Notes: generated by a model not told the origin, from the letters alone. A stretch of 64,000 nt of DNA from Promethearchaeota archaeon (GCA_029838195.1 JALGVJ010000003.1:1-64000), one strand, 5' to 3'. Shown: positions 24,333 to 50,185, counted from the first letter of the stretch. Numbers and translations are program-made.

Positions 24333-24355
24333 TTTTTAAAGCCTTCCAACCTTAT

Positions 24356-25075: not shown

Positions 25076-25112
25076 TACGTTTATATGATTTTTAAAAATT
25101 ATAATATTTTAC

Positions 25113-25151
25113 TTTAACGGCCGTTAAATGATAGACCGAACGGCGGTTAAA
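25113..25151. promoter_or_regulatory. Tandem operator in the wHTH-CARF / viperin divergent promoter
   Basis: Perfect 16-bp palindrome tttaacggccgttaaa (25113-25128) and 12/16 copy ccgaacggcggttaaa (25136-25151): GC-rich cores in an AT-rich spacer. Confidence 0.75.
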
Positions 25152-25186
25152 CAAGGATATTTAAGGGAAATAAAAATCTATTACAT

Positions 25187-25999
25187 ATGAAAAAACACGT
25201 GAATTTTCATTTTTGGCCTTATTGTAAATTTAAATGCAAGTATTGTTTTTTAAAATTTGAATACGTGAAAAGACCTTTATCCAAGAAAGATTGTATGAGT
25301 ATCCTCTTAGCGTTATGGGAATTCGGAGCTGAGAAAATTAATTTCGTAGGGGGAGAGCCTACTTTATGCCCATTCTTAGGAGAATTAATTGCTTACGCCA
25401 AGAATTTAGGCTTCACGACCAGTATCGTTTCAAATGGAACGGTAATTACACCTTCTTTCTTAAGGAAGTATGGAAAAAATATCGATTGGATTGGATTAAG
25501 CCTTGATTCCGGAAATGAAGAGACTCAAAAAGCCCTTGGACGTGGAAATGGCAACTACGTCCAAAAAACGATTAATAAAAGTCTCATGATCAAAAAATCA
25601 GGAATTAAATTAAAGATCAATACCGTTATAACTCGTTTGAATGTTAATGAGGACATGTCTGCTGTTATTAATAAAATCGCTCCTGATAGATGGAAAGTTT
25701 TCCAAATGCTCATCATTAAGGGACAAAATGATAATGAAGCAAAAAATCTCACCATTTCCTCATCTGAATTCAAGAATTTTACTAAAAGATATGCTGATTT
25801 TAATCCAATAGCTGAGAATAATGACGCAATGGTAGATTCTTATATCATGATCGACCCTTTAGGTAGATTCTTCCAAAACTCAGGAGGCACCTATAGTTAT
25901 AGCATGCCAATTTTACAAGTGGGCGTGTTTAATGCTTTTGACCAAATCACGTTTAATCATGATAAATTTATAAAAAGAGGCGGAATCTATTCTTTCTAA
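25187..25999 (+). CDS. Viperin (RSAD2-like antiviral radical SAM ddhNTP synthase)
   Basis: VNFH...CKFKCKYCF, KINFVGGEPTL, TSIVSNG, LKINTVI, RWKVFQML, ENNDAMVDSY.MIDP.GRF, KFIKRGGIY: the viperin motifs in order. Confidence 0.93.
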   Translation: MKKHVNFHFWPYCKFKCKYCFLKFEYVKRPLSKKDCMSILLALWEFGAEKINFVGGEPTLCPFLGELIAYAKNLGFTTSIVSNGTVITPSFLRKYGKNIDWIGLSLDSGNEETQKALGRGNGNYVQKTINKSLMIKKSGIKLKINTVITRLNVNEDMSAVINKIAPDRWKVFQMLIIKGQNDNEAKNLTISSSEFKNFTKRYADFNPIAENNDAMVDSYIMIDPLGRFFQNSGGTYSYSMPILQVGVFNAFDQITFNHDKFIKRGGIYSF

Positions 26000-29383: not shown

Positions 29384-31002
29384 TGATAATGATAAGAGAG
29401 AATTTTATTGGATATATTATCGGGGAGGCTTCTACTATGGAGTTTGAATTTGTCACGGATGAAAAGTTAGCTCCCCTAAAATGGGATTATTTAATGGTGG
29501 AATCTTTTGAAAGAAGGGAGGGAAAAGAATTTAAAGTGGAAATATTAGCACAAGTATCTGAAATCTTTGCTTTTAGCAAAAATATCACTATAGATACTCT
29601 TCCTTCTATGGTAAAGAAACAAATTGAACAAAATATTGTCAATCCCAAAATATATGGAAGAGCAAAGGTCTTGGGTTATATTGATAAGAATACTAAGAAC
29701 AAATTGATAAGAATTCCACGAAGAAATAGACTCCCCGGTGAAATGGTTTTTAGAGCACCTAATTCTTTATTAAGTGAATTCTTTAGTAAAAGAGAAGATG
29801 AAGGGCTTGAGATAGGAACCCTTTTAACAAATAGTCAAGTAAAGTTATTATTAGACCCGAATGGTCTCAATAGACATCTTGCCATTATAGCTCAAACTGG
29901 TGCAGGTAAATCATATACAACTGGAGTAATCATAGAGGAACTCTTTAAATTAGGGGGATCTATATTAATATTGGATCCTCACTCTGATTACGTTTTTCTA
30001 AGTCAAAAAGCAAAAGATTATTCTTTAGTGGAGAGGAGTGAATATATAAGAGTTTTTCGTAATCCCAATAGTACGGGAAGATATTCAAGTTCCTCTATAA
30101 TTAATCTACATCATTATGAAATAAATTTTGCAAACTTAGATGAGGAGGATATTGCGGAGATCTGTTTCATACCTGGGAATGCAGTCAGAATTAAGGAGAC
30201 AATAAGGTCTGCGATCGAAAAGATTGACGAAGACAATTATTCTCCTGAAAAATTGATCGAGCAATTAGAGGATATGGAAAAAAAAGCCCCCAATAGCAAG
30301 GAGCGCAGTATTATACGGAGTACAATTATAAGAGTAAGGCAGCTACTAAGATATAAGGTATTTGGAAATAATGATGTTCCTATAGAGGATATTATAAAAC
30401 CTTGGACGATCTCAGTGTTAGATCTTTCTGGATTAACAGATAAATCAATGAATTATATCGCAGCCCATATCTTACAAGAGACATATTCATATATCCTAAA
30501 TAAGGTGGATTTTCCCATATTCATCATTATTGAGGAAGCTCATAGATTTATCCCTCCTATCTCCAAAAAACAAACTTTTTGTAGTCGAATAATTAATACC
30601 ATAGCCGCGGAAGGAAGAAAATTTGGTTTATTTTTGATATTGATAACCCAAAGACCTTCCAAATTAGATCCTAACAGTCTTTCTCAATGCAATAGTCAAA
30701 TCATCATGAAAATTACTAATCCTGAAGATCAACAAGCAATTTTAAAATCGAGTGAGCGAGCTACTGAAGAATTATTGAATAATCTTCCGGCACTTTCGCC
30801 AGGTGAGGCCATCATTACTGGGGAAATCGTAAAAGTCCCAGTCATGGTTTCTATTAGAGAAAGAATTACTCGAGAAGGTGGAGCGGATATTAATATATTA
30901 GAAAAACTAAGACAAGCCAGAGAAGGATATGAAATAGAAAAAGAATCTGAGGAAGAAGAAAAATCAAGAATTAATCCTCGTAAAAATCCTTTCATGAGAT
31001 GA
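29380..31002 (+). CDS. herA: HerA bipolar DNA helicase/translocase
   Basis: HAS barrel N-terminus, RHLAIIAQTGAGKS, LDPH.DY, IEEAH.F, EGRKFG, TQRPS, SQC. Confidence 0.92.
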   Translation: MMIMIRENFIGYIIGEASTMEFEFVTDEKLAPLKWDYLMVESFERREGKEFKVEILAQVSEIFAFSKNITIDTLPSMVKKQIEQNIVNPKIYGRAKVLGYIDKNTKNKLIRIPRRNRLPGEMVFRAPNSLLSEFFSKREDEGLEIGTLLTNSQVKLLLDPNGLNRHLAIIAQTGAGKSYTTGVIIEELFKLGGSILILDPHSDYVFLSQKAKDYSLVERSEYIRVFRNPNSTGRYSSSSIINLHHYEINFANLDEEDIAEICFIPGNAVRIKETIRSAIEKIDEDNYSPEKLIEQLEDMEKKAPNSKERSIIRSTIIRVRQLLRYKVFGNNDVPIEDIIKPWTISVLDLSGLTDKSMNYIAAHILQETYSYILNKVDFPIFIIIEEAHRFIPPISKKQTFCSRIINTIAAEGRKFGLFLILITQRPSKLDPNSLSQCNSQIIMKITNPEDQQAILKSSERATEELLNNLPALSPGEAIITGEIVKVPVMVSIRERITREGGADINILEKLRQAREGYEIEKESEEEEKSRINPRKNPFMR

Positions 31003-32201
31003 GTTTTAAAATGGTTCAAATTTTACACACGGCTGACTTTCATTTAGATCCCAAAATGACTAACTTTCTTCACAGAGATCAAGAACGCAGAGATGATTTT
31101 CAGAAAAATTTTGATGAGATAATCAATTTTTCCCTAAAAGAAAGACCAGATATATTATTAATTTCGGGAGATCTTTTTGATAGCATTAATCCCAGAAATC
31201 CCGTTAGAAATCACGTGATTTCGCAGTTTAAAAGAATCCATTCAAAAAACATTAAAGCGTTTGTTATAGGCGGCAATCATGATATGCCTAGATCTATAGA
31301 AAATGCTCTCAGTCCAATTTCGATATTAAACACGATTGAATACATAGATTTCATCCAACCAGAAGGTCAATTCATCAGTAAAAGGGAGCTAAATATAAAT
31401 AATCTAAAAATAAATATCTTTGGTGAATCTTATGATGTTTTGAATACCAGAATGAGAGATCCATTGGATGAATTGAGTTTTGGAAATCTCGATGCGGATC
31501 TTAACATATTTATGGTTCATGGGAGTATAGGCTTATTTAGATATCGATATCCGGGAGATTATATCATTAAAGAAATTAATATTCCTGAAAAAATAGATTA
31601 TGTTGCAGCAGGTCATCTCCACGACCATATTGAAAAGGAAAGATACAATCCAAATTTAGGATCGAGCACTCTTATGGTTTATCCTGGTAGCATCGAGTTT
31701 TTATCTTTTAATGAAAATTTAAAAAAAGTGAAAGGATTTATGTTTTTAGAATATGATAAAGAAGGTCTAATTAATAAGGAGTTCATTAAATTGGAAACAC
31801 GTCCTATAGAGCAAATACCAATTTCGATTAATACCAATCAAGAAAATATTTATCAAACAATAATTCAAGAGATTGAGAATTTTTTAAATGATCGAAAAAT
31901 TCTAAAAGTCATCCTCGAAGGAAAGATTAAAGTTGACCAGATCGCATCAATTAAATCTTCAAAATTAATTAATTATGGAGATGAAAATTGCTTTAAATTC
32001 TTCTTAGATTCCTATTCAAAACTTGATTTTGAAACCACTGAATTAATTTTACCTGATAAAGAGAGAGCAAGCCCTATAGAAATTTTTTCACAATTTGTAG
32101 ATTCGTTAATCGCTAGGGAAGAAAATGAGAATTTTAAAAAAATTCTAATTGATGCCAAAAAAATAAGCTTAGAAAAGCTTGAAAAATTTGGGGTGAAATA
32201 A
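30999..32201 (+). CDS. mre11: Mre11/SbcD nuclease
   Basis: HTADFH, GDLFD, GNHD, HG, GHLH, YPGS.E. Confidence 0.92.
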   Translation: MSFKMVQILHTADFHLDPKMTNFLHRDQERRDDFQKNFDEIINFSLKERPDILLISGDLFDSINPRNPVRNHVISQFKRIHSKNIKAFVIGGNHDMPRSIENALSPISILNTIEYIDFIQPEGQFISKRELNINNLKINIFGESYDVLNTRMRDPLDELSFGNLDADLNIFMVHGSIGLFRYRYPGDYIIKEINIPEKIDYVAAGHLHDHIEKERYNPNLGSSTLMVYPGSIEFLSFNENLKKVKGFMFLEYDKEGLINKEFIKLETRPIEQIPISINTNQENIYQTIIQEIENFLNDRKILKVILEGKIKVDQIASIKSSKLINYGDENCFKFFLDSYSKLDFETTELILPDKERASPIEIFSQFVDSLIAREENENFKKILIDAKKISLEKLEKFGVK

Positions 32202-35200
32202 AAATAGAATTAAAATCTTTAAAATTAAGAAATTTCATGGTAATTAAAAAGGCTACTATTAATTTCATTCATGGGATAATGGCGATCATAGGGCCAAATG
32301 AAGCAGGAAAATCCACTATTATAGAGGGCGTCTTATTCAGCTTATTCGGCAAACGAGCATTTAGAGATTATGAACATTTAATCCATTTTGAATCAAATCA
32401 TGCTAAAATTTCCCTAATCTTTTCCGTTAGGGATAATATTTATCGAGTAAATCGAGAATTAAGAAAGAGCAAATCAGGTTCAACAAGTCAAATAAATGCT
32501 GTACTTTCAGAGTTAACCAATGGAGAAGAGCATTTTATTATAGCTAAAGGGGTATCAAACGTTGATTCTCAAATTGAACGAATCATTGGATTTTCTTATA
32601 ATGAACTCACGGCTTCAAATATTATCGCTCAGAAGAAATTAAACAAGATAAGTAAAATGACACCTCAAGAATGGAAGGAATTATTTAATGAATTTCTAAA
32701 CCTAAAAGGATTCGGAGATAGTATTTCAGAATTAAAAGAAGAGAAAAAAGAAAAACAAAATCAATTAAATAATGATGAGATTAGATTAGATGAATTGAAA
32801 AATAAAAAGGATGATTATTGGTCTCGATTCAAGGAATTAATTAGATTATCTAAAAATCATTATCGTAAAGCTAGAACTCACAGAAAACTCTCTAAAGAAG
32901 TAGAAATTTTATCAAAATATTTGAAAATTGTAAAAGATTACATAGAAAAAAGAGATCTAAAAATGAGACTTCAAGATGAGATGGCCTCTAAAGAGAAATT
33001 TTTAAACCAGTATAATGAACGTTTAGCTGAGATCGAGGCCTTAGAAGAAGAAACAGCACAATTAAAACATCAATTGGAAATTTATAAGGGATTAAATGAT
33101 GATGAAAAAAATTTTCTTAATATCAAAAACCATTTTGAGAATTATCAAAAAACACTAAAAAGAATAGAAGAATTAAAAGAAAAATTAAGATATATTATAG
33201 AATTAGAGGGAAAACTAGAAAATAAGAAAGAAAAATTTATAGAATACAAAGATATGCCTAATCAATTGAAACATTTCAGGGATTTAGAATCCTCATACAA
33301 ATTTTTAGAAGTTAATGTAAAGGAGAGAAATTCGCTTGAAGAAGAATTGAATAAGGTTATTACAGCCGAGAAAGAAGTAGCGAATTTAAAAAAAGATTTA
33401 TTGAAGGTAGAAGAAGATCTCAGTTATAAAAATGATTATATAGAAGCTGAAAATAAATTTCGTGAATTTAAAGCCAAATATGATCAAATAAAATATGAAA
33501 GAGATAAAAAAGAAGAATTAAAATTTGAGATTACCAAAATTAAGAAAACTTGTCCGAAAGAAACTCCCGAAGAGCTTGGAAATTTAAAAGAATATAAGGA
33601 TAGTTTGGAAAATCTTGTTAAAAAAGGTTTATTAAATTATATCACCCACTCATTTAAGTGGAATCTCCCCATTCTGATTGGATTTATAATAATTAGCTTA
33701 ATACCTATTTTTTTTGGTCGAATATTATATTCATTCATAGGAATAGGAGCATTTGCCCTATTTTTTATCTATTTATATTATAAATACCTTTCGCTTCAAG
33801 CATTAGTTAAAAAATTGGAAAATTTGATTTTTTCATTAAAAAAACTACAAAAAATAAAAGAAGAATTAAAATCAGTTGAGAAAAGCCTGGAAAAAAAATA
33901 TATTTCAATAGCTGAAATAATTAAAAGTTTATCAGAATATTATAGTAGTTCTTTTCAAGCGACGGAGGGCCTAAAAGAACAAGTATATTCATTAAATCTC
34001 TATTTTCAAGAAATTAATAAGAAATTGAATAGTTCAGAAGCTCGAATGGAAAATTTAAATAAAAAAATCAAGGAATTAAAAAAGCTCATAAAAAAGAAAC
34101 CAAAATTAGAGTATGATTTAGAAAACTCAATCAAGAATATTCATGAGGATAAAAAGCAATTGGATGCCATTTTTTCTGATGGTTTAGAAGAAAAGTATAT
34201 CAAAGAAAGGATTGACAAAATCTACTATGATGATTACATTGATTTTTCTATAGTAAAGCAACAGTTAAAGCAGATAGAAAATATTATTCTTAAAGATTTT
34301 GATCAATATAATATTTTAAAGAGAGAGATTGAAGATTTAAAAACTAAAACTAAAGATAAATCAACAGTGATTGAGAATTTAAAAAAAAAACAAAAAGAAA
34401 AACAAACTATATTTAATACTTTAGTTGAATTAATTGAAAGAATTAACCAAAAATATATAAATTCCATTACAAGTGAATTAACTATACATGAACAAGTAGA
34501 AAAAGTAATTCCTTTTGAAAATTCCATTAAAAAGCTTAATTCTTTTATCCAAGAAGATAAAAACGCACGTGACAAATTAGAAGCCCAAATAAATACAAAT
34601 AGCGCTCAGATCAATAAAAAACCGGAAGTAATTAAAAACATTAACAATATTAAAGGAGAGATACAAGAGATAATTTCCAATATAAAATCTATAGTTTTTC
34701 CAATAATCCCTGAAGAGATTTCAAATATCTTTGATAAAAATAAACCTAAAGATTGTCAGAATACCTTGGAAAATGAAATTATTGACTTAGATGAAAAAAG
34801 AAATCAAATTTATGGTGAAATGAAATCTATAAATACATCTAGAACAAAGATTCGTAATTATCTGAAAGATAATGAGCAAATTATTCATGATTTTTTTAAA
34901 ATGAAAAAAAAAGTTGAGAATTTAGAAAGAGAAATAAAAATATATAGTAAATCCATAGATTTGCTTGAACAAGTTAATAGAAAGATTTGGGATCTCCAAA
35001 TGCCCTATATCTATAGTTATATCAAGGAATTTTTACCTAAAATCACAATGGGGAGATATAGAAATATGATCATAACGCAGCCCGAATCACGTAGGAAGAA
35101 AAAATATGAATTTAAAGTATTTGAGGAAACTATAGAAACATATATAGATAAAAAATATTTATCAGGGGGTACTGATGATCAAATTTTACTAGTTATACGT

Positions 35201-35464
35201 GTTGCTGTTGCCATGTCTTTATTACCGCAATCTAAAGGACATTATCCTAAATTCATCTTTATTGACGAAGCATTCGCTTCAAGCGATGCTCAAAGAAGGA
35301 TGGAAATCTTAAATTGGTTAAAAAAAGATCTCTCCTCCATTTTTACACAGATCATTATCATCTCGCATCAAAAAGAAATTATTGAAGAAATACCCTATTA
35401 TTATAAACTCAATAGAGGAGATTTAATTGATAAATTTTTACCTGATCGAGAAATCATAAATTAA
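32198..35464 (+). CDS. rad50: Rad50/SbcC-like SMC ATPase with central transmembrane hairpin
   Basis: Walker A GPNEAGKS, Q-loop IAQ, long coiled coils, LSGG, FIDEAF, ISH; hydrophobic hairpin at ~33659-33790. The start is extended from ATG 32237 to ATA 32198 to include IKIELKSLKLRNF. Confidence 0.85.
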   Translation: MKIELKSLKLRNFMVIKKATINFIHGIMAIIGPNEAGKSTIIEGVLFSLFGKRAFRDYEHLIHFESNHAKISLIFSVRDNIYRVNRELRKSKSGSTSQINAVLSELTNGEEHFIIAKGVSNVDSQIERIIGFSYNELTASNIIAQKKLNKISKMTPQEWKELFNEFLNLKGFGDSISELKEEKKEKQNQLNNDEIRLDELKNKKDDYWSRFKELIRLSKNHYRKARTHRKLSKEVEILSKYLKIVKDYIEKRDLKMRLQDEMASKEKFLNQYNERLAEIEALEEETAQLKHQLEIYKGLNDDEKNFLNIKNHFENYQKTLKRIEELKEKLRYIIELEGKLENKKEKFIEYKDMPNQLKHFRDLESSYKFLEVNVKERNSLEEELNKVITAEKEVANLKKDLLKVEEDLSYKNDYIEAENKFREFKAKYDQIKYERDKKEELKFEITKIKKTCPKETPEELGNLKEYKDSLENLVKKGLLNYITHSFKWNLPILIGFIIISLIPIFFGRILYSFIGIGAFALFFIYLYYKYLSLQALVKKLENLIFSLKKLQKIKEELKSVEKSLEKKYISIAEIIKSLSEYYSSSFQATEGLKEQVYSLNLYFQEINKKLNSSEARMENLNKKIKELKKLIKKKPKLEYDLENSIKNIHEDKKQLDAIFSDGLEEKYIKERIDKIYYDDYIDFSIVKQQLKQIENIILKDFDQYNILKREIEDLKTKTKDKSTVIENLKKKQKEKQTIFNTLVELIERINQKYINSITSELTIHEQVEKVIPFENSIKKLNSFIQEDKNARDKLEAQINTNSAQINKKPEVIKNINNIKGEIQEIISNIKSIVFPIIPEEISNIFDKNKPKDCQNTLENEIIDLDEKRNQIYGEMKSINTSRTKIRNYLKDNEQIIHDFFKMKKKVENLEREIKIYSKSIDLLEQVNRKIWDLQMPYIYSYIKEFLPKITMGRYRNMIITQPESRRKKKYEFKVFEETIETYIDKKYLSGGTDDQILLVIRVAVAMSLLPQSKGHYPKFIFIDEAFASSDAQRRMEILNWLKKDLSSIFTQIIIISHQKEIIEEIPYYYKLNRGDLIDKFLPDREIIN

Positions 35465-39338: not shown

Positions 39339-40412
39339 ATGGAATCTCAAATAGATTTCGATATTAATGGAATTCAAAATATTTATGAAATTGTTGAAAA
39401 ACAGGTTAAACGCTTTCAACAACTACGACAATTAGTAAGAGAATTAAAATTTATTCCTGTAGACCCCATTGCGACTTATTCATCAGTTACTTATAAGTCT
39501 ATTGATGGTGGAAAAATGGGGATTTCATTTCATCCCTTTGAATTTGATTTTATTGTAATAGCAAATTCAATGGGTAGTGAATTGTTGAAATATTTAGTTC
39601 CAAAATCTGATTTTCTTAGTTCTTCAGATTTTCTTTATATGAATGGTTTTAAACAAATTAAATATTTACTAAATATTTTGGATTTAAACACGGTTTCAGA
39701 ATTATCTGATTTATTAATAAATCCGCAAATGGCAATGGAATTAACTGAATATGCTTGTATTTTCGAGAGATTAGGAAGAGATAAAAATGATCCAATAATT
39801 GTAATGAAAGATGGTCTTTTAAGGACAAAAGCGATTAAATATCAAATCATACCGAAAATGATCTCTTTTCTTAAAACTAATCCCAAGAGAAAATTAATTG
39901 GTGTTGCTAAAAGTTCACAGGTAATAAATCTAATATCGACAGCATTATATCTTGAAAAAGTAGTTCCTAAGAATTGCACAGGATTTATTGAGATTCCTTG
40001 GGAAATTGAAAAATTAGCATATAGGCAAAGTAAAATGAAATATCATTTGTATTATTCTTTTGGAAAGCTTTACGTGGCAAAATTATGTAAGAGATCAAAT
40101 CTATTAATCACTATTGAAATTCCTTATGATTTTAAAAATGATCAACCTGTTTATACTAAGTATGAAATTTTTGAAATTATTGGCCATTTAATCAAGGATT
40201 CAAGTGGATCCTATCCCATATTAGGATATCCCCAAACAATCATGAGAGCTCATGAAAAAGCTGTTAGGACTGGATTTTCCGCTTCTATTTGGAGAGATAA
40301 AATAATTAATTATTTATTAGAAAAACTTGGAGATAGAAAAATTAGGATTTTAATCCAAGAGAGTCATTTTCTTAAAGAATATGTACAAAAAGAAATATTA
40401 GGGGGGATATAA
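39339..40412 (+). CDS. Second, divergent NurA-like nuclease
   Basis: SIDGG, MKDGLLR, IGVAKSS, GYP....RAHE.A. Confidence 0.8.
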   Translation: MESQIDFDINGIQNIYEIVEKQVKRFQQLRQLVRELKFIPVDPIATYSSVTYKSIDGGKMGISFHPFEFDFIVIANSMGSELLKYLVPKSDFLSSSDFLYMNGFKQIKYLLNILDLNTVSELSDLLINPQMAMELTEYACIFERLGRDKNDPIIVMKDGLLRTKAIKYQIIPKMISFLKTNPKRKLIGVAKSSQVINLISTALYLEKVVPKNCTGFIEIPWEIEKLAYRQSKMKYHLYYSFGKLYVAKLCKRSNLLITIEIPYDFKNDQPVYTKYEIFEIIGHLIKDSSGSYPILGYPQTIMRAHEKAVRTGFSASIWRDKIINYLLEKLGDRKIRILIQESHFLKEYVQKEILGGI

Positions 40413-40415
40413 TTA

Positions 40416-42593
40416 ATGGAAATGAATATTGGAGAACCTATAGGAATATTTTTGGGGATTGAAAGTACGACTTTTGAATATTTAGCAAGCATTATTACTC
40501 CATATCAATTAGATTATTCTCCAACAATTGGAACTTTTATACTAATCGATAATTTTGATGAGTATATTGTTGCTCGTGTAATGGAATATATCCCGCAAGG
40601 AGAAATGATTTCTTTTTATGGTAAAAAATGGTTATCTGAAGTAGCATTGACACCTGAAGTAATTGGGCAAGATATTAAAACAAGTAAGATAAGCTATTCA
40701 GTTAAAATAAAATTATTAGGGCGATTGAGTAAAAATTTAAGGACATTTATTCCTGGTATAAAAAGAATTCCTCACCTTACAAGTAAAGTTATTCAACCTA
40801 ACTCGAAAATCGTGAAAATCATATGTAATAAAGCATTGAAAGAAATGGAACAAGGAATAGAAATAGGGAATTATTGGAGTGATGAAAATATTAAGATACA
40901 TTTTGATATGAAAAGCTTAATTGGAAAAAGGACTTTCATATTCGCCCGAGCAGGTTACGGAAAAAGCAATTTAATGAAAATTATTGCTTCTAATTGGAAG
41001 GAAGAGTTTGGAAGTTTAATTATTTTTGATCCCGAGGGAGAATATTCAATTACAGATAAAAAAGAGCGCCCTGGAATAATGGATCAAATTCCCGCATTAT
41101 TAATAACTAATCGTATTGGAATTCAAGAAGGATTAGGTAATAATGTTTATAATAAATTAAAATTTGATTTTAGGAAGTTTCATCCAAAATTTATTATACC
41201 TATTATTGTTTCAGAGAGTAAATATGAATTTGTTTTTTTCAACAAGTTAATGAGCCTTACAAAGGAACAATGGTGTAATTTAATTGATTATTTATATGAA
41301 AATAGGTACAATGGAGAATATCACGAAATTGCGGAAATTATGGGAATAAAATATGAAAAACCTGTTGATGTTACTCCAATAATGAATAACATTATTCCTC
41401 CAATGGATCAATTACATGACCCAGAATCAAAACTTTTCTCAATATTAGAAAAAGCGGTAAAAAAAAATCTGATTATAATTATTGATATCTCATTATTAGC
41501 TTCAAATAATGCACTGAATTTATCTTCATTAATAATAAGTAAATTTTTCCGTAAAAATCAAAAAGAATTCACTATGAAAGGAAGGGATTTAAATAAAATT
41601 ACTTTTGTAATTGAAGAAGCTCAATCAGTAATAGGGGGCACGAATAATGTAAGTAAATTCGTTGAACTTGCTAAAGAAGGCCGGAAATATCAATTAGGGG
41701 CTATATTTATAACACAACAGCCAGGAAGTATTTCAATGGACATATTAAGTCAAGGAGATAATTTCTTTGTTTTTCATCTTTTAAGTAAAGATGATTTAAG
41801 AGCACTTCAAAAAGCTAATGCTCATTTTTCAAATGATATTCTAACTCAAATCTTGAGTGAACCTATTCCCGGTAAAGCATATATGTGGACCTCTCATCAG
41901 CCATTCGTAATTCCGCTTCAAATAAAAAATTTTGAATTAGAAGCAACACCAAATAAAGCTAAAGAAATACAAGCTCAAAATGATCTTTTAATGCCTATTT
42001 TAAACGAAATTGTTGAAATTTCCGAAATTGAAGAAAAAATAATAGAAAAATTCCAAACCATTTTAATAAATAATCAAATTGACATTCGGGATAAAGTTTC
42101 AATATTTAATAATACCTTAAAAAAAAAAATTACGGTTCAAACTTTTAAATTACTTTCCGAAAAAGAAATTAAATTCTTAGAAGAAAAAGATCTTTTAGCT
42201 AAAAATACAGAGACAAATAAACCTTATGCAGTAAGTTATAATTATCTCAGTGAGTTATATCAGAAAGCTCTTATGAAACATTCATTAAAAATAAAAAAAA
42301 ATATTCCTATTGAAGCAAATAGTACCGATTTGAAAATGATTATAGATGATTATTCTGTTAATATAAAAAACAATCCGAAAGATGGTAATTATGTAGAAAA
42401 TTTATATTATAGTTTTGAAACGGAAAAAGCAATAAAATTCAGACGTAAAAAAGACGATAAAATTCTTTGGATACCTAAATCTGCTATAAAAAATAAATGG
42501 GTTAAAGATAACAGTCTCTCTCAAAAAATTATTTTAAATTATATTCCCTCAGATTTCCAATGGAGTAAAGATAGAGAATTTAATGATAGGTAA
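40416..42593 (+). CDS. Second HerA-like (DUF87) ATPase with C-terminal extension
   Basis: FARAGYGKS, FDPEGEY, IEEAQ, KEGRKY.LG..ITQQPG. Confidence 0.85.
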   Translation: MEMNIGEPIGIFLGIESTTFEYLASIITPYQLDYSPTIGTFILIDNFDEYIVARVMEYIPQGEMISFYGKKWLSEVALTPEVIGQDIKTSKISYSVKIKLLGRLSKNLRTFIPGIKRIPHLTSKVIQPNSKIVKIICNKALKEMEQGIEIGNYWSDENIKIHFDMKSLIGKRTFIFARAGYGKSNLMKIIASNWKEEFGSLIIFDPEGEYSITDKKERPGIMDQIPALLITNRIGIQEGLGNNVYNKLKFDFRKFHPKFIIPIIVSESKYEFVFFNKLMSLTKEQWCNLIDYLYENRYNGEYHEIAEIMGIKYEKPVDVTPIMNNIIPPMDQLHDPESKLFSILEKAVKKNLIIIIDISLLASNNALNLSSLIISKFFRKNQKEFTMKGRDLNKITFVIEEAQSVIGGTNNVSKFVELAKEGRKYQLGAIFITQQPGSISMDILSQGDNFFVFHLLSKDDLRALQKANAHFSNDILTQILSEPIPGKAYMWTSHQPFVIPLQIKNFELEATPNKAKEIQAQNDLLMPILNEIVEISEIEEKIIEKFQTILINNQIDIRDKVSIFNNTLKKKITVQTFKLLSEKEIKFLEEKDLLAKNTETNKPYAVSYNYLSELYQKALMKHSLKIKKNIPIEANSTDLKMIIDDYSVNIKNNPKDGNYVENLYYSFETEKAIKFRRKKDDKILWIPKSAIKNKWVKDNSLSQKIILNYIPSDFQWSKDREFNDR

Positions 42594-42615
42594 AAAAGAT
42601 TTTAAATCATAAGAA

Positions 42616-43860
42616 ATGACATTAGTCAAATTAATTAACAGCATTTTAGAAATAGCGCGTAAAACTACGACTTATAAATTTGCAACCTTACTTTCTATTT
42701 TTGATTATGTTATAGATCATCCTGAAGAAGAGCCGATTAATAATTTTCATTTTATTCCAATAATCTATTTAGCAAGGCAATTCTTTTCCTATTATTATCC
42801 TCTTTCTTATTATGATTTTTCTCAAGGAACATCTACCGGGCTTGCGATTTATTCTCAAATCAATAAAAAATTAAAAAATAATGATAAGATAAATGACAAA
42901 TTATTATTAAAAGCCTTGAAGTCTCGAGCAGAGGGAATTGTTTGGATCAATCAATTGTATGATTCTCCCGATATGCTTCCAGAAATCCTTGTTAAGTTAC
43001 TTTGGGACATTCGAGGTAAGATTATTGATCAACCCTTGCATTATATTTCAAATATAGCAGGGACAAAACGAAGGTTTTTCGGCATAATAAATAAAACCCT
43101 TCAATTTGATTCTACTTATGAGGTTCATCGAGAAAAAGCAAGAAAGCAGCTTCCTCCCAACGAGCCCATGAATTGGTTGCAAATATTCATGTATGATCAA
43201 ACTTCTCTAATAATTGATGATCTTACTTATAAGGAATTAGCCCGATTTAGATTTTGGATTCGTGATGTGATTTTAAAGAAATGGTTTGAATTTTCACATG
43301 AAATTGACAAGAACAAGGGAAATATTTCTTATGATTATGGGGAATTTTTTAATATCTTGAATTTAGCCTATAAAAAAGAGATTTCTCGTGATTCATATTT
43401 GATATCTCGTTATAGAGATTTCTATATTCATATAGGAGCTCTTATTTCAATTTTTTCGGGGAAACGCTTCAATTCTAATGATAATTTTCAAATAGATCAT
43501 TTATTACCTTGGTCCTATTATCGCGTCAATCGTTTTTGGAATCTTTTTCCTCTTGAACCCGATATAAATCGAGAGAAATCAAATTATCTTCCGCGTCTCA
43601 CGGAAGAAATAGAGAAGAGAATTGCTCACCATTTAGAAGCGTGTATAAATAATTTAGACAACTCTTTAATAAAGAATGATTTGACTTATTTTTATTGGAT
43701 TCTTCAGAAGGATTTTACTTTTACTATTGAAGAATGTCATGCGGATGAAGTCGTGGAGCAATTATTGGTAGCAATTAAGAAAGATCTAAAGAATTTAAGA
43801 AGAATCATTCCGGGAAAAGAATATATTAAAGATACCTCATCAATCAAGGAGGGCAAATAA
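42616..43860 (+). CDS. HNH endonuclease (type IV restriction-like)
   Basis: N-terminal TTYKFA.L and C-terminal IDHLLPWS.....WNL.P....N..KSN. Confidence 0.82.
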   Translation: MTLVKLINSILEIARKTTTYKFATLLSIFDYVIDHPEEEPINNFHFIPIIYLARQFFSYYYPLSYYDFSQGTSTGLAIYSQINKKLKNNDKINDKLLLKALKSRAEGIVWINQLYDSPDMLPEILVKLLWDIRGKIIDQPLHYISNIAGTKRRFFGIINKTLQFDSTYEVHREKARKQLPPNEPMNWLQIFMYDQTSLIIDDLTYKELARFRFWIRDVILKKWFEFSHEIDKNKGNISYDYGEFFNILNLAYKKEISRDSYLISRYRDFYIHIGALISIFSGKRFNSNDNFQIDHLLPWSYYRVNRFWNLFPLEPDINREKSNYLPRLTEEIEKRIAHHLEACINNLDNSLIKNDLTYFYWILQKDFTFTIEECHADEVVEQLLVAIKKDLKNLRRIIPGKEYIKDTSSIKEGK

Positions 43861-44044
43861 AGGAGTTTTGAAGGCATATAATTTTATTTTCTATAAATTT
43901 TAAATCAGTTTTATGGTTAATGGAAATTTAATGGAAAAAAGAAGTAATCTAAAAAAATTAATTTCTAACTATTCATATTAGGGGGGTCATGTTTTTATAG
44001 GCATACTGCATTATTTTGTTTAATAACAAAAAAAATGAGGACCA

Positions 44045-45709
44045 ATGGAATTTGAAAATAGAATTTCTCCAGCGGTGGTTGATGAGACCTCATGGAAGGA
44101 GAATGAGGAGCAGGTTTCGGTCAAGCCTGAATTGGAGGTGGCCACGGTTCTTTCTTATTTTGAGGAGCAGCGGGATCCTGTTGGCAAAATAAAGAAAAAG
44201 TCGAAGGAGCAATATCAGAGCTTATTGAAGCTTTATTGGCCTTATTATTTGATTCCGCTGAGCGAGGAAAATAGTGCAATTGGGATTGACGGCATGGCCT
44301 TAAGTTCTCTGGAGCTATTCAAAGGTCTGGCGATTAGGGAAGAGCAGATAAGGAACGAATTAAAAAACTTGGAAGATGCTGCGTTGCTTGAAGGGCTGGC
44401 AAATTTACAAGAAGCTTATAAAAGTTTAGGGGAGAAAGAGAAAGTAAAAGGCCTATTGTCTCCCGAATTCACGAAAGCCTTAATTGATTTAAGCAATTAT
44501 AGCTTGAAAGAGGGGTATTTGGGAATCTCCATCACGCCAGTTGTAGATGAGGATAAAGCTACAGAGATTTTTGAGAAAGTGGACATTTACGTGAAGACTA
44601 TAGCGGAAATAAAAGGTGATATTGATAAGAAGAATCAAATGATTGAAGAGGCGCTTAAACAAAAGAAAGAGGAAATAAATGGAGAAATCAAGGCGTTAGA
44701 AGCGGAGTATGACCAAAAAATAAATGAAATGACTCCTATCATCGAGGAAAATAAGCGAAACATTAATTCTAAGAGACAAGGCGAGATTGCGCATTTAAAG
44801 GAAGAGCGGAACAAGGAAATCGTCCAGACCATGAATTTAATCAAGGAATCTTTCAAGCCTATAGAAGCGAAAGTGGCATTTCTCAATGATTTATGGGAAA
44901 AAGACAAGAATACGGTGTTGAATATAAACGAGTCGGGAGAATTAATATCAGAAATCGAAGGGAGCATTGACCGGTTCAAGAATAGGATAAAAGAATTTGA
45001 TACTGAATTGACTAATATCCGTCAAGAAATCAATAAGATTGCTGAGCGTTTCACTCAAATTAATCAAAAATATGATAATGAGGAAAATATTGTTAATTCA
45101 AAATATGATAAACAAATTCAAGAAGAGGAGGCAAAAATCTCGGCTTTAGAAAACGAGAAAAGCGGAAAAATTAAAGAACGGCAAGAGATGGCAAATAAAT
45201 TAGACCAGCAATTAGCTCACCTCCAAGAATTAACGGATTCATTCAAAGAGCAATTAGACCAATCTGTTTCAGATTTAGATGAATATATTGCGAGAAATAC
45301 GGAATTAGGAAAACCTCTTAAATTAGAAGTGCCCATTTGGGTGGCTAAATTTTTTCATGTTAAAGAAGGTAGTCGTCAAATAGTTTTACCTCCGGTTTTT
45401 CTCCCAAGAATCATGCCGAAGAAAATAAAAGATGATGGATTAGGGCAAAATGATATACCGGTCATGATTTACAATGAATTATTCATTCCACATCTCAAGG
45501 AAACCTTTCAGAAATTTCTACAAGAAGAATCTGCCGCGAAAAAGCAAATGGAGGAAGATATAGGCGAGCAAGATTATCTTAAAATTAAAGAAATTCGAAA
45601 TCGTTTTATTGACGGGATTGACATGCTCTTGGGAAGGCAATTGATCTCTGCCAAAGCAAAAGAGATCATCCAAGCTAACGTGCTGGCAGCCTTCAAATCA
45701 TTTGAATAA
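44045..45709 (+). CDS. Large coiled-coil hypothetical protein
   Basis: Long E/K/Q heptad region between small globular ends (YWPYY; VPIWV); no NTPase motif. Confidence 0.75.
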   Translation: MEFENRISPAVVDETSWKENEEQVSVKPELEVATVLSYFEEQRDPVGKIKKKSKEQYQSLLKLYWPYYLIPLSEENSAIGIDGMALSSLELFKGLAIREEQIRNELKNLEDAALLEGLANLQEAYKSLGEKEKVKGLLSPEFTKALIDLSNYSLKEGYLGISITPVVDEDKATEIFEKVDIYVKTIAEIKGDIDKKNQMIEEALKQKKEEINGEIKALEAEYDQKINEMTPIIEENKRNINSKRQGEIAHLKEERNKEIVQTMNLIKESFKPIEAKVAFLNDLWEKDKNTVLNINESGELISEIEGSIDRFKNRIKEFDTELTNIRQEINKIAERFTQINQKYDNEENIVNSKYDKQIQEEEAKISALENEKSGKIKERQEMANKLDQQLAHLQELTDSFKEQLDQSVSDLDEYIARNTELGKPLKLEVPIWVAKFFHVKEGSRQIVLPPVFLPRIMPKKIKDDGLGQNDIPVMIYNELFIPHLKETFQKFLQEESAAKKQMEEDIGEQDYLKIKEIRNRFIDGIDMLLGRQLISAKAKEIIQANVLAAFKSFE

Positions 45710-45896: not shown

Positions 45897-46550
45897 TTAT
45901 TTTGACTTGTGAGTTCTAACTAAATCTACTATAGATTCTTCTGCTTTAAGGGTAAGAAGGCGATCTTTTTCTATCAAATGTAATTTTCTGGCCTTTTCAT
46001 TAATCAACCACAATTCAGAATGAATGTTTTCTTCGTCTTGTTTATTTTGATTTTTCCCTGGTAAGCGAATAGAACAAGATTGTAAATTGTCTATAATGCC
46101 ATAGATATAATCTCGAGAAATAATAGCATATTTGTCATGGATTTTTAATAATTTGAAGTACTCTTGAGGCTGATATTGGTCGCATTTATATTTAAAATGA
46201 AATTCCTTATTTTTATTAACATAAATGGGCATGCCACAAAAAATACATCTTCTTAAAGATCCTTGCACTTTTAAGAATCTTGGTTCTTCTGATAGATAAT
46301 ATTTAAATTTTGTATGACCATATCTTGTTTTATAACCTGAAAGACTTTGGAATTTGAAGATCTCATTATCTTCTTTAGCCCTTTTTTCCAAATGGTATTT
46401 AATTTTAGAAAGAGTCCAATCTTGAGCGGTAAAATAACCTTTTTGATAAAAAAAATCAGAATGTACATAATCAAGAATCTCCAATGGAGCACAAGGCCCA
46501 AATTCGGATACAATGTTTTTAATGAAATCCATTTTAGAATATAAAACCAT
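45897..46550 (-). CDS. Hypothetical protein with a putative Zn site
   Basis: CIFCG.P........H...C; co-oriented downstream of the SMC-NYN gene. Confidence 0.65.
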   Translation of the reverse strand: MVLYSKMDFIKNIVSEFGPCAPLEILDYVHSDFFYQKGYFTAQDWTLSKIKYHLEKRAKEDNEIFKFQSLSGYKTRYGHTKFKYYLSEEPRFLKVQGSLRRCIFCGMPIYVNKNKEFHFKYKCDQYQPQEYFKLLKIHDKYAIISRDYIYGIIDNLQSCSIRLPGKNQNKQDEENIHSELWLINEKARKLHLIEKDRLLTLKAEESIVDLVRTHKSK

Positions 46551-46602
46551 GAACTTTATTTTTTTTTAAAATCTTCCCCTTTCTGAATAAAAATTTAAAA
46601 TT

Positions 46603-49600
46603 TTATAGTTTACCATCCATTATTTTTTTAATTTTTTCTTCGAAACCTTCTTCAAATTGAATTCTATTTACTAATATGTTATAACGTATGGAGTGTTCCT
46701 CAAGAAATTGATTATATTGAGGATATTTTTCTCGATAATCCAAATATCTATCATTAGTAATAATATAAGAATTGTTTTTCCGTGCAAAATCTATGATGAA
46801 CCAATCATCATCTCTTCCTGCTGGTGCTTGAGAGATGGTTGGTTCATTAATTAATTTTTCAAATAACATTAGTTCTCCTTCAGAAATTTTATGTCTGATT
46901 CCCGAACCAAAAAGAATTAAAATATTTTTTTCTGGTACTCCCAAATTAATAAGTTTCTTCTTACAATTAAGTACATTTCTAATTGAAGGTTTATTTGAAA
47001 TGGGATTACTATAAGCGATATTAGATCCATCCAGAATGAATGAAAATTCAAGAGAATCTTCTAAACCATCGTCAATTCCAAGAATGGGTCGTTTTTGAGA
47101 AATCGTAGATTCAGAGAAATTCCCATTATTATTAATTAAAGGTATCTTTCCTACATTAAAATCTAAAATTTTACGTTCTGAATTAGGAAAATTAATCTCT
47201 TGATAATATCCTTGAGTAGCCACTTCTTTTTGGAAATCATTAAGAATTTTAAGTTGAGAATTTAGACTATCGATATTAGAAGTAATCCCCCTCTTTTTTT
47301 CTTCATCAATAGTTCTTTCTACGAGTTCTGCGATGGTATCTAAATCCTCTTTTAAAGGCAGTAAATTGATAAATTTGGTAATATATCCTTTTTGAACCAT
47401 TTCTTCTTGAAATTGGTATAAATTTTGACCATGCTCGTGATCTAATAATGCATACGATTCATCAAGGACGACAATATTATATTTAGCAATTTTTGCACTC
47501 ATGGAGATAATGGAGCGACAATAAGCATAAGTCTTCTCGCCGCTTGAAAATTCTTCCAAATCTCTGGTTTCTTGTAACCCTGCTTTTGTTTCAAATATTA
47601 TTGTTTTATTTTTAATATCAAATTGTAAAATTTGAGAATAATCTTTAAACACGTATTCGAAAAATTCCTTTTTACCATAGATATCTTTAAAAATTTTATC
47701 AAATTGTTCAGTTATAATTTTTAAATGAGCTTCATTTTTAGGTTTCTTCCCTTCAATGACCTTTTCTATATCATCTTTAAGAATTTTCAATCGTTTTTGG
47801 AGTTCTTTTGTAGAATTAATATATTTATTTAGTTTTTCGACATGATTATTATAATAATCAATGAATTTTCCCATTTCCAAAAACCCGAATTTCCGTGCAA
47901 CCTCTTTTATTTTTGATGTTAATGGTTCTAATTTTTTTTTAAGATCTTCTACTGATGCTTTGATTTTTTCCTCCTCATATTCCATTTTATTTAATTCTTG
48001 TTTATCTAATTCAAGCTTTTGATTAAGTTCAACAATTTTTTGTGTAAGAGCCTTTGGATTTGGATGTGGTTGATTCCTGTTTAGCCCTAATTTATTAATA
48101 AGGGATAATTTAGAAGGGATTTCATTAATTCGATTTAATAAATTCTCAATATCTTCGATTTTTTTCTTACGGGAATCAATTTCACGCTCTAAATTTTCAA
48201 TATTTTTCGTTTTTTCTGTTATTTTTTCTTTTAAATTCTTAATTCTTGTGTTGAGATTAATATAATCATCGATTTTAGAACTCTTACCCATCAATTGCTT
48301 TTTTAAATTCATCAAACTTTTTTGATTCTTGCTATATTTTTTTAAAATTTCAAGAATTTCTTTATTTTTTTTAATTTTTTCATTTAAACCTTGAACGGTA
48401 TTTTTATATTGTTTCAATTTCTCATTTTCCTTAAAAACAAGATTATTCTCCTCAAAAATCTCATGAAGCTTTTTAAAAGAAAAATAGAGTTCATTTCCAT
48501 TCTCTAATTTAAATTTAATGAGGTTTTCTTTACCAAAATCATGAGAACTAGCTTTGCTACAAGTATCCCGTAATTGGGTTAGAAATTTATTTATTTCAAT
48601 AATTCTTTCATTCTTTTTATTTAATTGTTCAATAATGCTTTTAGAATCAGTTAATTCCTCTTCATATTTATTTATTTTTTGTCCAATTTCTTTAATAATC
48701 AAGTTTGATTCTTTTTCATGTAAACTCTCTAAATTCAAGTTGAAGTCATGAATTAATCGTTTTTCTAATTTATCCCTTTCTTTTTCCTTTTTTCCTATCT
48801 TTTTTAATAAGTTTTTGGTTTTTGTATCAAATTGATTTTGAAAATCTTCATATTTTTTTTGATAGTCAATTAATTTCTTATAATCTACTTCTTTTTTTTC
48901 TTTAAGCTGCTCAAGCTTCGATTCCTCTTCTTGTTTTTGCAGAGTTAAGCTTTCTTCGTCATTCTCACATATAAATAATAATTTTTTAAATAATCCAATT
49001 TGTTTTTCTATTTTTTCTATTTTCGATTTTCTATTTAAATTACTGTTCTTAAATTGATTGATTCTATTTAATTGGTCACTATATTGTTCTTGTAATTTAA
49101 TATAGGAAGTAATTGTATTACCTGTCATAGATTCAGATATCCATTCTTGATATTGATTTAGAAACTCTAATTTTTTCTCTAAATTTTTTATTTTTTGTTC
49201 TATTTTTGCTACAAACACATCCTTAAAGAATAGAATTTGCTGTTTAAGAGATTCATCTCCCCTAATGGTTCGAATATTGAAGCAATCACGAAATTTTTCA
49301 TGGCTGATTTCTCTCTCTCCTCTGTTATCTATTTCATAAAAATTTCCAAGACTCAATGGATTAATCCGATTTAAGCTATTATCAAATTTCCATAAATGGG
49401 GTATTAATTTCACTTTATATTTGAGATTTTTATTAATTTCAAATATAATTTCACATGATTCAATGGCTTTAATAAATTTTGTAAAGTTAGCTTCATTTTT
49501 GAAAATATAATTATCTGAAGCAATTTCAAGGAGTGTAGCGGCCATGGATTTACCAATTCCATTTTTACCATGAATAGTGATGATACTCTGAGGTGCGATA

Positions 49601-49671
49601 TAAGGAATAACGTTTCTTCCTCTTGCATTAATATTAATGCTAATGTATTGAGCTGGTTTCATATCAAGCAT
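46603..49671 (-). CDS. SMC/Rad50-like ABC ATPase fused to a C-terminal Regnase/Zc3h12a-like PIN (NYN) RNase domain
   Basis: Walker A GKNGIGKS, long coiled coil, FSSGEK, VVLDES. C-terminal FILDGSNIAY ... GRDDDWFII.FA.....IITNDRYLDY. Confidence 0.82.
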   Translation of the reverse strand: MLDMKPAQYISININARGRNVIPYIAPQSIITIHGKNGIGKSMAATLLEIASDNYIFKNEANFTKFIKAIESCEIIFEINKNLKYKVKLIPHLWKFDNSLNRINPLSLGNFYEIDNRGEREISHEKFRDCFNIRTIRGDESLKQQILFFKDVFVAKIEQKIKNLEKKLEFLNQYQEWISESMTGNTITSYIKLQEQYSDQLNRINQFKNSNLNRKSKIEKIEKQIGLFKKLLFICENDEESLTLQKQEEESKLEQLKEKKEVDYKKLIDYQKKYEDFQNQFDTKTKNLLKKIGKKEKERDKLEKRLIHDFNLNLESLHEKESNLIIKEIGQKINKYEEELTDSKSIIEQLNKKNERIIEINKFLTQLRDTCSKASSHDFGKENLIKFKLENGNELYFSFKKLHEIFEENNLVFKENEKLKQYKNTVQGLNEKIKKNKEILEILKKYSKNQKSLMNLKKQLMGKSSKIDDYINLNTRIKNLKEKITEKTKNIENLEREIDSRKKKIEDIENLLNRINEIPSKLSLINKLGLNRNQPHPNPKALTQKIVELNQKLELDKQELNKMEYEEEKIKASVEDLKKKLEPLTSKIKEVARKFGFLEMGKFIDYYNNHVEKLNKYINSTKELQKRLKILKDDIEKVIEGKKPKNEAHLKIITEQFDKIFKDIYGKKEFFEYVFKDYSQILQFDIKNKTIIFETKAGLQETRDLEEFSSGEKTYAYCRSIISMSAKIAKYNIVVLDESYALLDHEHGQNLYQFQEEMVQKGYITKFINLLPLKEDLDTIAELVERTIDEEKKRGITSNIDSLNSQLKILNDFQKEVATQGYYQEINFPNSERKILDFNVGKIPLINNNGNFSESTISQKRPILGIDDGLEDSLEFSFILDGSNIAYSNPISNKPSIRNVLNCKKKLINLGVPEKNILILFGSGIRHKISEGELMLFEKLINEPTISQAPAGRDDDWFIIDFARKNNSYIITNDRYLDYREKYPQYNQFLEEHSIRYNILVNRIQFEEGFEEKIKKIMDGKL

Positions 49672-49685
49672 TTTTCTTTCCCTCT

Positions 49686-49898
49686 TTATATTTTATTTCT
49701 ATTATCAAGGTATTTTCGGAACTCTTCATTAGAAAAATTTTCAAAATTATTACATTTAATGAGGGAATCCAGGAATTCTTGATAAACATCTTCTAAATTA
49801 AACGTCTCAACAATCTTCTGAATTAATGATTCTGTAATCATCTCATAATCCATAATTATTTCACGTAAAATATTTTTGCAGTTTTCCAATAAATACAT
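49686..49898 (-). CDS. Small acidic hypothetical protein (or gene remnant) upstream of the SMC-NYN gene
   Basis: 70-aa ORF ending 14 bp before the SMC start; no motif recognised. Confidence 0.4.
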   Translation of the reverse strand: MYLLENCKNILREIIMDYEMITESLIQKIVETFNLEDVYQEFLDSLIKCNNFENFSNEEFRKYLDNRNKI

Positions 49899-50185
49899 GT
49901 GTTTTTTAGAAATTTATATCTTTCTAAAAATATAAAATTAGAAAATTTAAAAAATTCGAATCTCGCTTCATCACCATAACGACAATAAAAATTAAAAAAA
50001 TGTTATCATCCAATTCTCTAATAAACCACATTAATATAAATTTTTTTTTTGGTAATTGAGATAAATTAAATAATATCATCAAGAAGATTACATAAGAAAT
50101 GGTAGATTCAAAGAATTTAATATTATTAAGATTAATCTTTAAATGAGTATCAATAAGCAAAAAAAGGAAAAAGGTATGTAAAATC

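Follow-up and report, generated by a model that had tools for sequence, protein, structure and literature searches.

RloC and PrrC hold, within one polypeptide, a Rad50-like ATP-binding cassette (ABC) ATPase with a coiled-coil insert and a C-terminal RNase that the ATPase presumably gates. Lamassu (LmuABC/DdmABC; ABC-3C) is built around a Rad50/structural maintenance of chromosomes (SMC)-like coiled-coil ATPase, its presumed sensor, together with one or two small accessory proteins and an effector that varies among relatives. The effectors described for Lamassu are Cap4, Mrr, protease, Sir2, FMO, HNH, SMEK, and lipase, and no NYN or PIN domain is among them (bioRxiv 10.1101/2025.04.02.646746). 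In addition, some short LmuB proteins lack a zinc hook and carry degenerate ATPase motifs (bioRxiv 10.1101/2025.04.02.646746; PMC10586767). In animals, RNases of the Pfam family RNase_Zc3h12a (PF11977) act in antiviral and immune RNA decay, and a 2017 classification of PIN domains listed the prokaryotic members of this family as being of unknown function (PMC5499597). Here we describe a cassette on the minus strand of a 64,000-nucleotide stretch of DNA from a Promethearchaeota archaeon (GCA_029838195.1 JALGVJ010000003.1:1-64000; hereafter the window), in which a small acidic open reading frame (ORF) is followed by the gene of a 1022-residue protein, an ATPase fused to an NYN domain (ATPase::NYN), and by that of a 217-residue partner. 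A previous sequence-only reading had proposed this three-gene unit; the ORFs were confirmed, and the unit recurs in many independent assemblies. With moderate confidence, we regard the cassette as a three-component antiviral or anti-mobile-element defence system of a previously uncharacterised Rad50/SMC-like ABC ATPase family.

The C-terminal domain of the ATPase::NYN protein (ORF 49671..46603, minus strand) is a Zc3h12a/Regnase-type NYN (PIN-like) domain by hidden Markov model (HMM), by profile comparison with the PDB, and by fold, in agreement with the sequence-only reading. It spans residues 876-1022 and, together with the stop codon, occupies positions 46603..47046. PF11977 was the one domain that Pfam placed above threshold in the 1022-residue protein (residues 879-1009, 45.8 bits; gathering score, 23), and no further PIN or NYN family was found at E<1. 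A profile of the family's C-terminal domains retrieved ZC3H12B (E 1.1e-8), ZC3H12C and ZC3H12A (approximately 2e-8 to 5e-8), KHNYN (1.8e-4), and PRORP2 (2e-4) from the PDB and no other PIN family. An AlphaFold2 model built on 28 orthologues (mean predicted local distance difference test score [pLDDT], 79) placed the NYN fold at residues 878-1018. In VIA-align comparisons this fold gave Z scores of 16.4 to ZC3H12C and MCPIP1/Regnase-1 (root-mean-square deviation of 2.7-2.9 over 143-145 residues), 15.6 to KHNYN, and 13.0 to PRORP2, and Foldseek gave template modelling (TM) scores by target of 0.66-0.73 to ZC3H12/KHNYN structures. Residue conservation was scored in 28 orthologues, and the motifs D881-G-S-N, D955-D956, and N973-D974 were invariant. 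D881, D955, D956, and D974 align with D141, D225, D226, and D244 of MCPIP1, which together with D248 are its acidic active-site residues (PMC5499597).

According to the model, the remainder of the protein is an ABC ATPase of the Rad50/SMC-like type whose head is divided by a long antiparallel coiled coil, in line with the split motifs seen in the sequence-only reading. The head is formed by residues 1-140 (49252..49671) and 668-835 (47167..47670), and the region between them (residues 141-667; 47671..49251) consists, by model secondary structure, of two helical arms (residues 142-375 and 416-665) and a non-helical apex (residues 376-415; nucleotides 48427-48546), a 40-residue beta/alpha element in which S398 and F399 are invariant. 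An acidic disordered linker (residues 836-875; 47047..47166; isoelectric point [pI] 4.3) connects the head with the NYN domain, and its pLDDT is approximately 30 (27-34) over residues 838-872. Walker A (G35-x-N-G-x-G-K41-S), in the N-terminal half, and the signature F708-S-S-G-E-K, Walker B L736-D-E-S, and D-loop D744, in the C-terminal half, did not vary among the 28 orthologues. The closest fold matches of the head in VIA-align were RecF (Z 13.8), Rad50 (Z 13.5; 301-304 residues aligned), and SMC (Z 12.9). In Foldseek, Rad50 came first (E 6.7e-11), followed by Smc5/6, condensin, MukB, LmuB (7e-6), and JetC. When each half of the head was compared as a profile with PDB sequences, the outcome was a generic P-loop match (ABCE1, E 0.0045) or none, and Rad50 was not retrieved; therefore, the homology of the head rests on its fold. 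Among Rad50/SbcC sequence models, SbcC_Walker_B of Pfam reached E 0.066 and the NCBIfam scores were far under their cut-offs.

Several features set this ATPase apart from canonical Rad50 proteins. No CxxC zinc hook occurs anywhere in the 1022-residue sequence, and no SMC hinge was found at the apex. The Q-loop glutamine is absent; its expected position is occupied by R137-G-[DN]-E (R137-G-[DN]-E-S with the following residue), which is invariant in the fusion family and largely so in the wider family described below. The His switch is also absent, and the strand expected to hold the histidine ends in the invariant L771-P772, which is largely kept in the wider family. Both positions were assigned from the sequence pattern and the strands of the model, not from a residue-level structural alignment. 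Since Walker A, Walker B, the signature, and the D-loop are intact while the Q-loop is non-canonical and Leu-Pro replaces the His switch, the sequence suggests that the ATPase acts as an ATP-binding switch with slow hydrolysis and not as a motor.

The domain thus belongs to PF11977, whereas the protein as a whole lies outside the Regnase family, Lamassu, RloC, and Wadjet. The likeness to Regnase-1/ZC3H12A-D, KHNYN, and N4BP1 consists of the same Pfam family and fold (Z 15.6-16.4, approximately 20% identity over 143-147 residues) and of the retained DxxN, DD, and ND catalytic motifs. Unlike these proteins, the ATPase::NYN protein has no CCCH zinc finger, KH domain, or ubiquitin-binding domain and carries its NYN domain on an SMC-like ATPase; no CCCH motif was found in the protein, and the chain ends four residues past the NYN fold. 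With Lamassu, the cassette shares the coiled-coil ATPase as presumed sensor, small accessory proteins, and an effector that varies among relatives. However, the effector is fused to the ATPase C-terminus, in contrast to the separate LmuA with its docking domain, and one partner is a winged helix-turn-helix (wHTH)/zinc-ribbon protein. Neither partner matched the LmuA or LmuC models of PADLOC 2.0.0 (2023), the version used throughout for the defence-model search; P0002 matched no family, and P0003 gave weak ZorE and PDC-M11B matches only. The RNase of RloC and PrrC is a HEPN-like anticodon nuclease, whereas a metal-dependent NYN/PIN domain takes its place in the cassette; the cassette also differs from RloC in having two conserved partner genes and no zinc hook, and the AAA_13, HEPN, and PrrC/RloC models of Pfam and NCBIfam gave no match. 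Rad50-Mre11/SbcCD provides the best structural matches to the head and likewise has an ABC head split by an antiparallel coiled coil and an associated nuclease, but the zinc hook, the Mre11-type phosphoesterase, the Q-loop glutamine, and the His switch are missing here. The sequence-only reading had called the system RloC/Lamassu-like: genomic context and effector swapping fit that logic, and by analogy the cassette resembles Lamassu and RloC in having a sensor ATPase that would gate a toxic effector, but it is a member of neither. The same reading had not recognised the fusion as a described one, and the fusion is indeed absent from PADLOC 2.0.0 and from the literature searched, in which no paper joined Asgard archaea, NYN, and defence and the cassette was undescribed (the 2020 ABC ATPase classification lay outside the search); neither NYN nor SMC-like systems are mentioned in two papers on the Asgard defensome.

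More than 28 full-length orthologues of the fusion (approximately 1000-1027 residues, 42-87% identity) were found in NCBI, JGI, ENA, and Logan assemblies. The same architecture thus recurs elsewhere, and the fusion is not an assembly artefact. By tblastn, the three genes co-occur in every locus with enough sequence, in the order small-ATPase-Zn/WH or Zn/WH-small-ATPase, where Zn/WH denotes the zinc/winged-helix partner; the unit is kept in approximately 35 loci. The closest named homologues come from Promethearchaeota/Lokiarchaeota.

What had not been foreseen from the sequence is that the cassette belongs, as a single branch, to a far wider family whose other members carry different effectors. 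When the whole-protein profile was searched against 1.84 billion representatives, many ATPases of approximately 770-850 residues were aligned over profile positions 8-826, and the relatives without an NYN domain stop at the G-Y-Y-Q tail (G-Y-Y-Q-E-I in the window protein, at the end of the C-terminal head half), which is the exact start of the NYN linker. The family occurs in Asgard archaea, Nitrosopumilales, Actinomycetota, and Chloroflexota. Loci from genomes and metagenomes were typed with purpose-built HMMs. Type A (small protein, ATPase::NYN, Zn/WH) was found in approximately 35 Asgard loci. Type B consists of Zn/WH, small protein, ATPase, and a beta-CASP/metallo-beta-lactamase nuclease (L019, 2789-7749; L047), and type C, from low-GC metagenome contigs, of beta-CASP, small protein, ATPase, X206, and X300. 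In type D (Nitrosopumilales and others), the small protein and ATPase are followed by X206, X300, SIR2, and an Eco57I-like methyltransferase, and in type E (approximately 30 loci in Actinomycetota and Chloroflexota) by X321, SIR2, and an N6/N4 methyltransferase. Walker A, the signature, Walker B, and the Leu-Pro motif are invariant across 22 diverse ATPases of the family, and in each of the five types an acidic ORF of 50-65 residues directly adjoins the start of the ATPase or overlaps it. A locus search started from P0141 alone found nothing. The family ATPases and their partners were unmatched in PADLOC 2.0.0 beyond weak LmuB or AriA matches of at most 34 bits. This large ATPase family with its exchangeable effectors, for which Pfam, NCBIfam, and PADLOC have no curated model, is the principal new finding.

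A quick maximum-likelihood tree with Shimodaira-Hasegawa-like approximate likelihood-ratio test support, midpoint-rooted for drawing only and with a more careful search unfinished, placed the NYN-fused ATPases in one group (support 98) that is sister to type B (100). Both are nested within the archaeal beta-CASP/X206 types, and bacterial type E lies across the root. With its midpoint root, this topology would fit a single fusion in which NYN may have replaced a separate beta-CASP effector. In addition, the same NYN clade (P0115, P0125, P0123) is found at the C-terminus of other proteins, namely a BrxL-like Lon protease (527 residues), a 1615-residue Promethearchaeota protein with a weak BrxC/D-like ATPase match, and an FHA protein. 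The NYN domain therefore behaves as a shuffled effector module that recurs in further probable conflict systems.

Two arrangements were seen among the archaeal relatives with a separate beta-CASP protein (L019; L065, L069, L073): in one, Zn/WH and the small ORF come before the ATPase and the nuclease gene after it; in the other, the nuclease gene precedes the ATPase, and X206 and a 300-residue protein lie downstream. A conserved type E-like operon in Actinomycetota and Chloroflexota (L036:5974-12147, from Tepidiformaceae; L045, from Microbacterium; L037-L043, L082-L102) encodes a small acidic protein, an ATPase of approximately 790 residues, a protein of approximately 320 residues, and SIR2_2, usually with a convergent N6/N4 DNA methyltransferase gene; neither the ATPase nor the 320-residue protein has a PADLOC 2.0.0 model. 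We regard this operon as a candidate for a defence system that is linked to modification and akin to the window cassette.

The 217-residue partner (45897..46550, minus strand; pI 9.1) comprises a winged helix, a C2HC zinc ribbon, and a beta-rich C-terminal part. Its 48 homologues are 48-88% identical, and none has a Pfam family. The zinc site anticipated for this protein was borne out, in that C102, C105, H118, and C123 are invariant and form a C2HC site on two beta hairpins of the model (pLDDT 86.5). The first 87 residues adopt a winged helix, which is a widespread fold (Z 7.5). Fold searches of the partner (PDB Foldseek, VIA, and ESM Atlas) matched the winged helix alone, with Z of at most 7.5 and TM below 0.5, and the scores of an ESM Atlas feature search did not exceed 0.83. 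The Zn/WH protein of type B shares 39% identity with the partner in the window, and X206 is homologous to it (hhalign probability 98.6, E 6.7e-16, 188 columns including the CxxC...H...C site); the Zn/WH partner is thus kept in archaeal types A-D. In contrast, hhalign detected no similarity of X300 or of the bacterial X321 (321 residues) to the Zn/WH family.

It is conceivable that the partner is only the transcriptional regulator of the operon and that ATPase::NYN, alone or together with the small protein, makes up the working system. wHTH repressors are common in defence operons, the partner is basic, and nothing in it but the winged helix, of the Fur/MarR/PadR type, has a fold match. However, the partner is more conserved than the ATPase (58-64% versus approximately 50% identity), adjoins it in both gene orders, and is retained in types A-D, beside three kinds of effector and across two phyla of archaea, and the reading frames are often near-abutting or overlapping. 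Such persistence, adjacency, and near-abutting frames are typical of a subunit, and we consider the regulator-only explanation doubtful. The partner is basic and is kept with the ATPase across effectors, and it would more likely be a nucleic-acid-binding subunit than a mere repressor.

The small gene was first listed as 49898..49686 (70 residues). Its homologues begin at the residue matching M16, so that the gene is probably 49853..49686 (minus strand) and encodes an acidic helical protein of approximately 55 residues (pI 4.3); the small upstream ORF of the sequence-only reading is thus conserved, and its start is moved. The protein has an invariant Q-E-F-x-D-S motif, and its homologues are 44-57% identical. 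By tblastn, such an ORF lies upstream of the ATPase at each locus with enough sequence. Single-sequence comparisons with the small ORFs of the distant types detected no similarity. The small protein could serve as an autoinhibitory element. A role as an effector-specific antitoxin was rejected, since the protein accompanies the ATPase whichever effector is present.

The most likely function of the cassette is that of an abortive-infection RNase system. In this scheme, the ATPase would dimerise, probably through the coiled-coil apex and the heads, and together with the basic Zn/WH partner and the small acidic protein would sense a nucleic-acid structure associated with an invader. The ATPase would keep the toxic enzyme silent until such a structure is met; ATP-dependent engagement of the heads would then join or unmask two NYN domains on their flexible linkers of approximately 35 residues. 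The NYN domains would act as Mg-dependent endoribonucleases on viral and/or host RNA, and the cleavage would lead to abortive infection or growth arrest. The PIN domain of Regnase-1 is inactive as a monomer and requires head-to-tail PIN-PIN contact or dimerisation in vitro (PMC4772114), which makes activation by proximity plausible for a tethered NYN domain. In this scheme, the ligand, the dimerisation, the role of ATP, RNA as the target, the parts played by the two small partners, and the defence phenotype are all inferred, as are the DNA sensing put forward in the sequence-only reading and the coupling of the RNase to the ATPase.

Several points weigh against a defence role or against parts of this mechanism. 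The defence role is predicted here from genes alone, and because no known defence model matches, the assignment rests on context and architecture. The best PADLOC LmuB match (25.6 bits, E 1.7e-6) is weak and mostly coiled-coil, covering residues 536-717 only, and relatives reach at most 33 bits; the JetC matches of Wadjet are likewise weak and lie in the coiled coil (25.3 bits), and the partners have no JetA, JetB, or JetD match in PADLOC. Lacking the Q-loop glutamine and the His switch, the ATPase may fail to cycle altogether. Of the DGSN/DDD/TND.Y.D motifs first read in the NYN domain, D881, D955, D956, and D974 hold in all 28 orthologues, but the last Asp does not: position 978, equivalent to D248, is acidic in just 22 (Asp in 6, Glu in 16) and Gln, Asn, or Lys in 6. 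The ATPase::NYN gene is split into two ORFs at three loci, L004 (1-2902), L049, and L064 (618|360, 650|288, and 408|313 residues, respectively); the breaks, at differing points, are probably frameshifts, decaying copies, or assembly errors. The defence-rich neighbourhoods described below were counted without a baseline of random Asgard genes. Finally, HEC-09, a candidate system with a MARF1-like NYN domain, gave no defence in Escherichia coli (bioRxiv 10.1101/2024.01.29.577857).

A conflict system of the same architecture might instead cut DNA with its NYN domain, acting on flaps, ends, or clamped invader DNA as Mre11 does with Rad50 or JetD with Wadjet. The PIN-like domains include FEN-type DNA nucleases (PMC5499597), the ATPase is Rad50-like, and relatives pair it with DNA methyltransferases and with beta-CASP proteins, a family that includes DNA nucleases. 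On the other hand, the nearest solved relatives by both sequence and fold (ZC3H12A/B/C, KHNYN, and PRORP) are all RNases, and no FEN-type helical arch or H3TH extension was seen on inspection of the model, which was not a formal test. DNA cleavage is regarded as quite unlikely.

The cassette is an accessory gene set with a sparse distribution. The ATPase was found in 6 of the 301 Asgard species genomes, all of one order, and in 2 of the 68 others of the window's own family; among 90 high-quality genomes, 17 were positive even when NYN-only matches were counted. The GC content is 0.25-0.28 in the cassette and 0.36 in the flanking core genes, and the flanking genes include an archaeal-type phosphoenolpyruvate carboxylase and a sulfolactate-dehydrogenase-like Ldh_2. 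In the window, the cassette closes a low-GC stretch that also holds viperin, an oligonucleotide cyclase, two HerA/NurA sets, and an HNH protein. Neighbours differ between loci and include DpnII, TIR, PRTase-CE, a type I-D CRISPR-Cas set, PLD with a UvrD-like helicase, MNT-HEPN, GIY-YIG/DUF4357, and DUF4365.

This low GC content and patchy distribution, the relatives in other phyla, and ParA-like or ParB-like genes near three homologous loci might point to a module of an integrated plasmid or provirus that serves the maintenance of the element, addiction, or the exclusion of competitors and not host immunity. However, the family alignment found no relative in 2.9 million viral contigs, and no integrase or tRNA adjoins the cassette (the window contains no tRNA and no Rfam RNA); the neighbours are mainly other defence genes. 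This explanation, which we judge improbable, also overlaps with a defence function, since mobile elements often carry defence systems.

A housekeeping factor that ties the handling of chromosomes or DNA ends to RNA processing (clearance of R-loops or transcripts, or PRORP-like tRNA maturation) would account for the PRORP similarity (Z 13.0) and for the Zc3h12a-type NYN proteins that are common, at a conserved housekeeping-like position, in other Asgard families, but it is very hard to reconcile with presence in so few genomes (6/301, or 17/90 with NYN-only matches), the variable neighbourhoods, the frequent frameshifted copies, and effectors exchanged for SIR2 or beta-CASP, and is highly improbable.

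Zc3h12a-type NYN matches not fused to an SMC-like ATPase were seen in many Asgard genomes, with 41 of 76 in one family and 13 of 28 in another. In two Asgard genera, a 165-residue protein (L012:1471-1968, minus strand; L014:1369-1866, plus strand) combines an N-terminal C2HC-type zinc finger, which scores below the Pfam threshold, with PF11977 (45-53 bits), and its gene lies between those of a CitMHS transporter and alanyl-tRNA synthetase. This protein looks like a housekeeping "mini-Regnase".

SMC/Rad50-like immune sensors (Lamassu, Wadjet, and human Smc5/6) are under active study, and the way in which an effector is set free by the ATPase cycle is just beginning to be understood. The proposed defence family would offer a natural single-chain version of such a system, with the effector on the head via a flexible linker, and the sister systems with a beta-CASP nuclease or SIR2 on the same core are a ready-made comparison. 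With members in four phyla, among them cultivable Actinomycetota (Microbacterium sp. GCS4), the family is accessible to laboratory experiments. The NYN domain of the Asgard variant comes from the domain family that animals employ in antiviral and inflammatory RNA decay, which makes it a further candidate among the few immune modules common to Asgard archaea and eukaryotes. A more far-reaching possibility, which we think unlikely in its entirety, is that the cassette is the Asgard branch of an archaeal-bacterial defence superfamily with interchangeable effectors and, at the same time, that its NYN clade shares direct ancestry with Regnase-1, N4BP1, and KHNYN. The core of such a superfamily would be the small acidic protein and an SMC-like ATPase lacking both hook and His switch, with the wHTH/zinc partner in the archaeal types. 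If this were true, ATPase-gated RNA decay would be another immune module inherited from the archaeal ancestor.

The AT-rich region at 49854..50185 (minus strand), read directly from the sequence, is common to the cassette and the divergent Ldh_2 gene and is probably a promoter region. A TATA-like sequence, ATATAAAT, was found upstream of the small ORF and is not significant in DNA so rich in A and T. The intergenic gaps within the cassette are 14 and 52 bp, and a purine-rich GAGG/GGGG-like ribosome-binding motif precedes both downstream genes. A 78-residue ORF with a TTG start in the AT-rich intergenic region (49924-50160, minus strand) has no homologue in related loci and is probably not a gene.

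Further genes of interest were observed in the low-GC stretch of the window. At 23547-25999, viperin (PADLOC pVip, 285 bits) is divergent from the genes of a wHTH regulator and a CBASS-type oligonucleotide cyclase (81 bits). At 28001-35464 (plus strand), genes for a second HerA (131 bits to DUF87), an Mre11-like phosphoesterase, and a 1075-residue Rad50-like protein are co-oriented, with a Csa3-like gene upstream; the Rad50-like protein scores 59 bits on the PADLOC LmuB model, above the NYN-fused ATPase. A NurA-like gene, a 725-residue HerA (PADLOC HerA, 88 bits), and a 414-residue HNH_4 protein form a tight co-oriented set at 39339-45709 (plus strand), which is probably a separate HerA-based defence system. 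The HNH_4 gene is followed by that of a 554-residue coiled-coil protein, which is convergent with the cassette.

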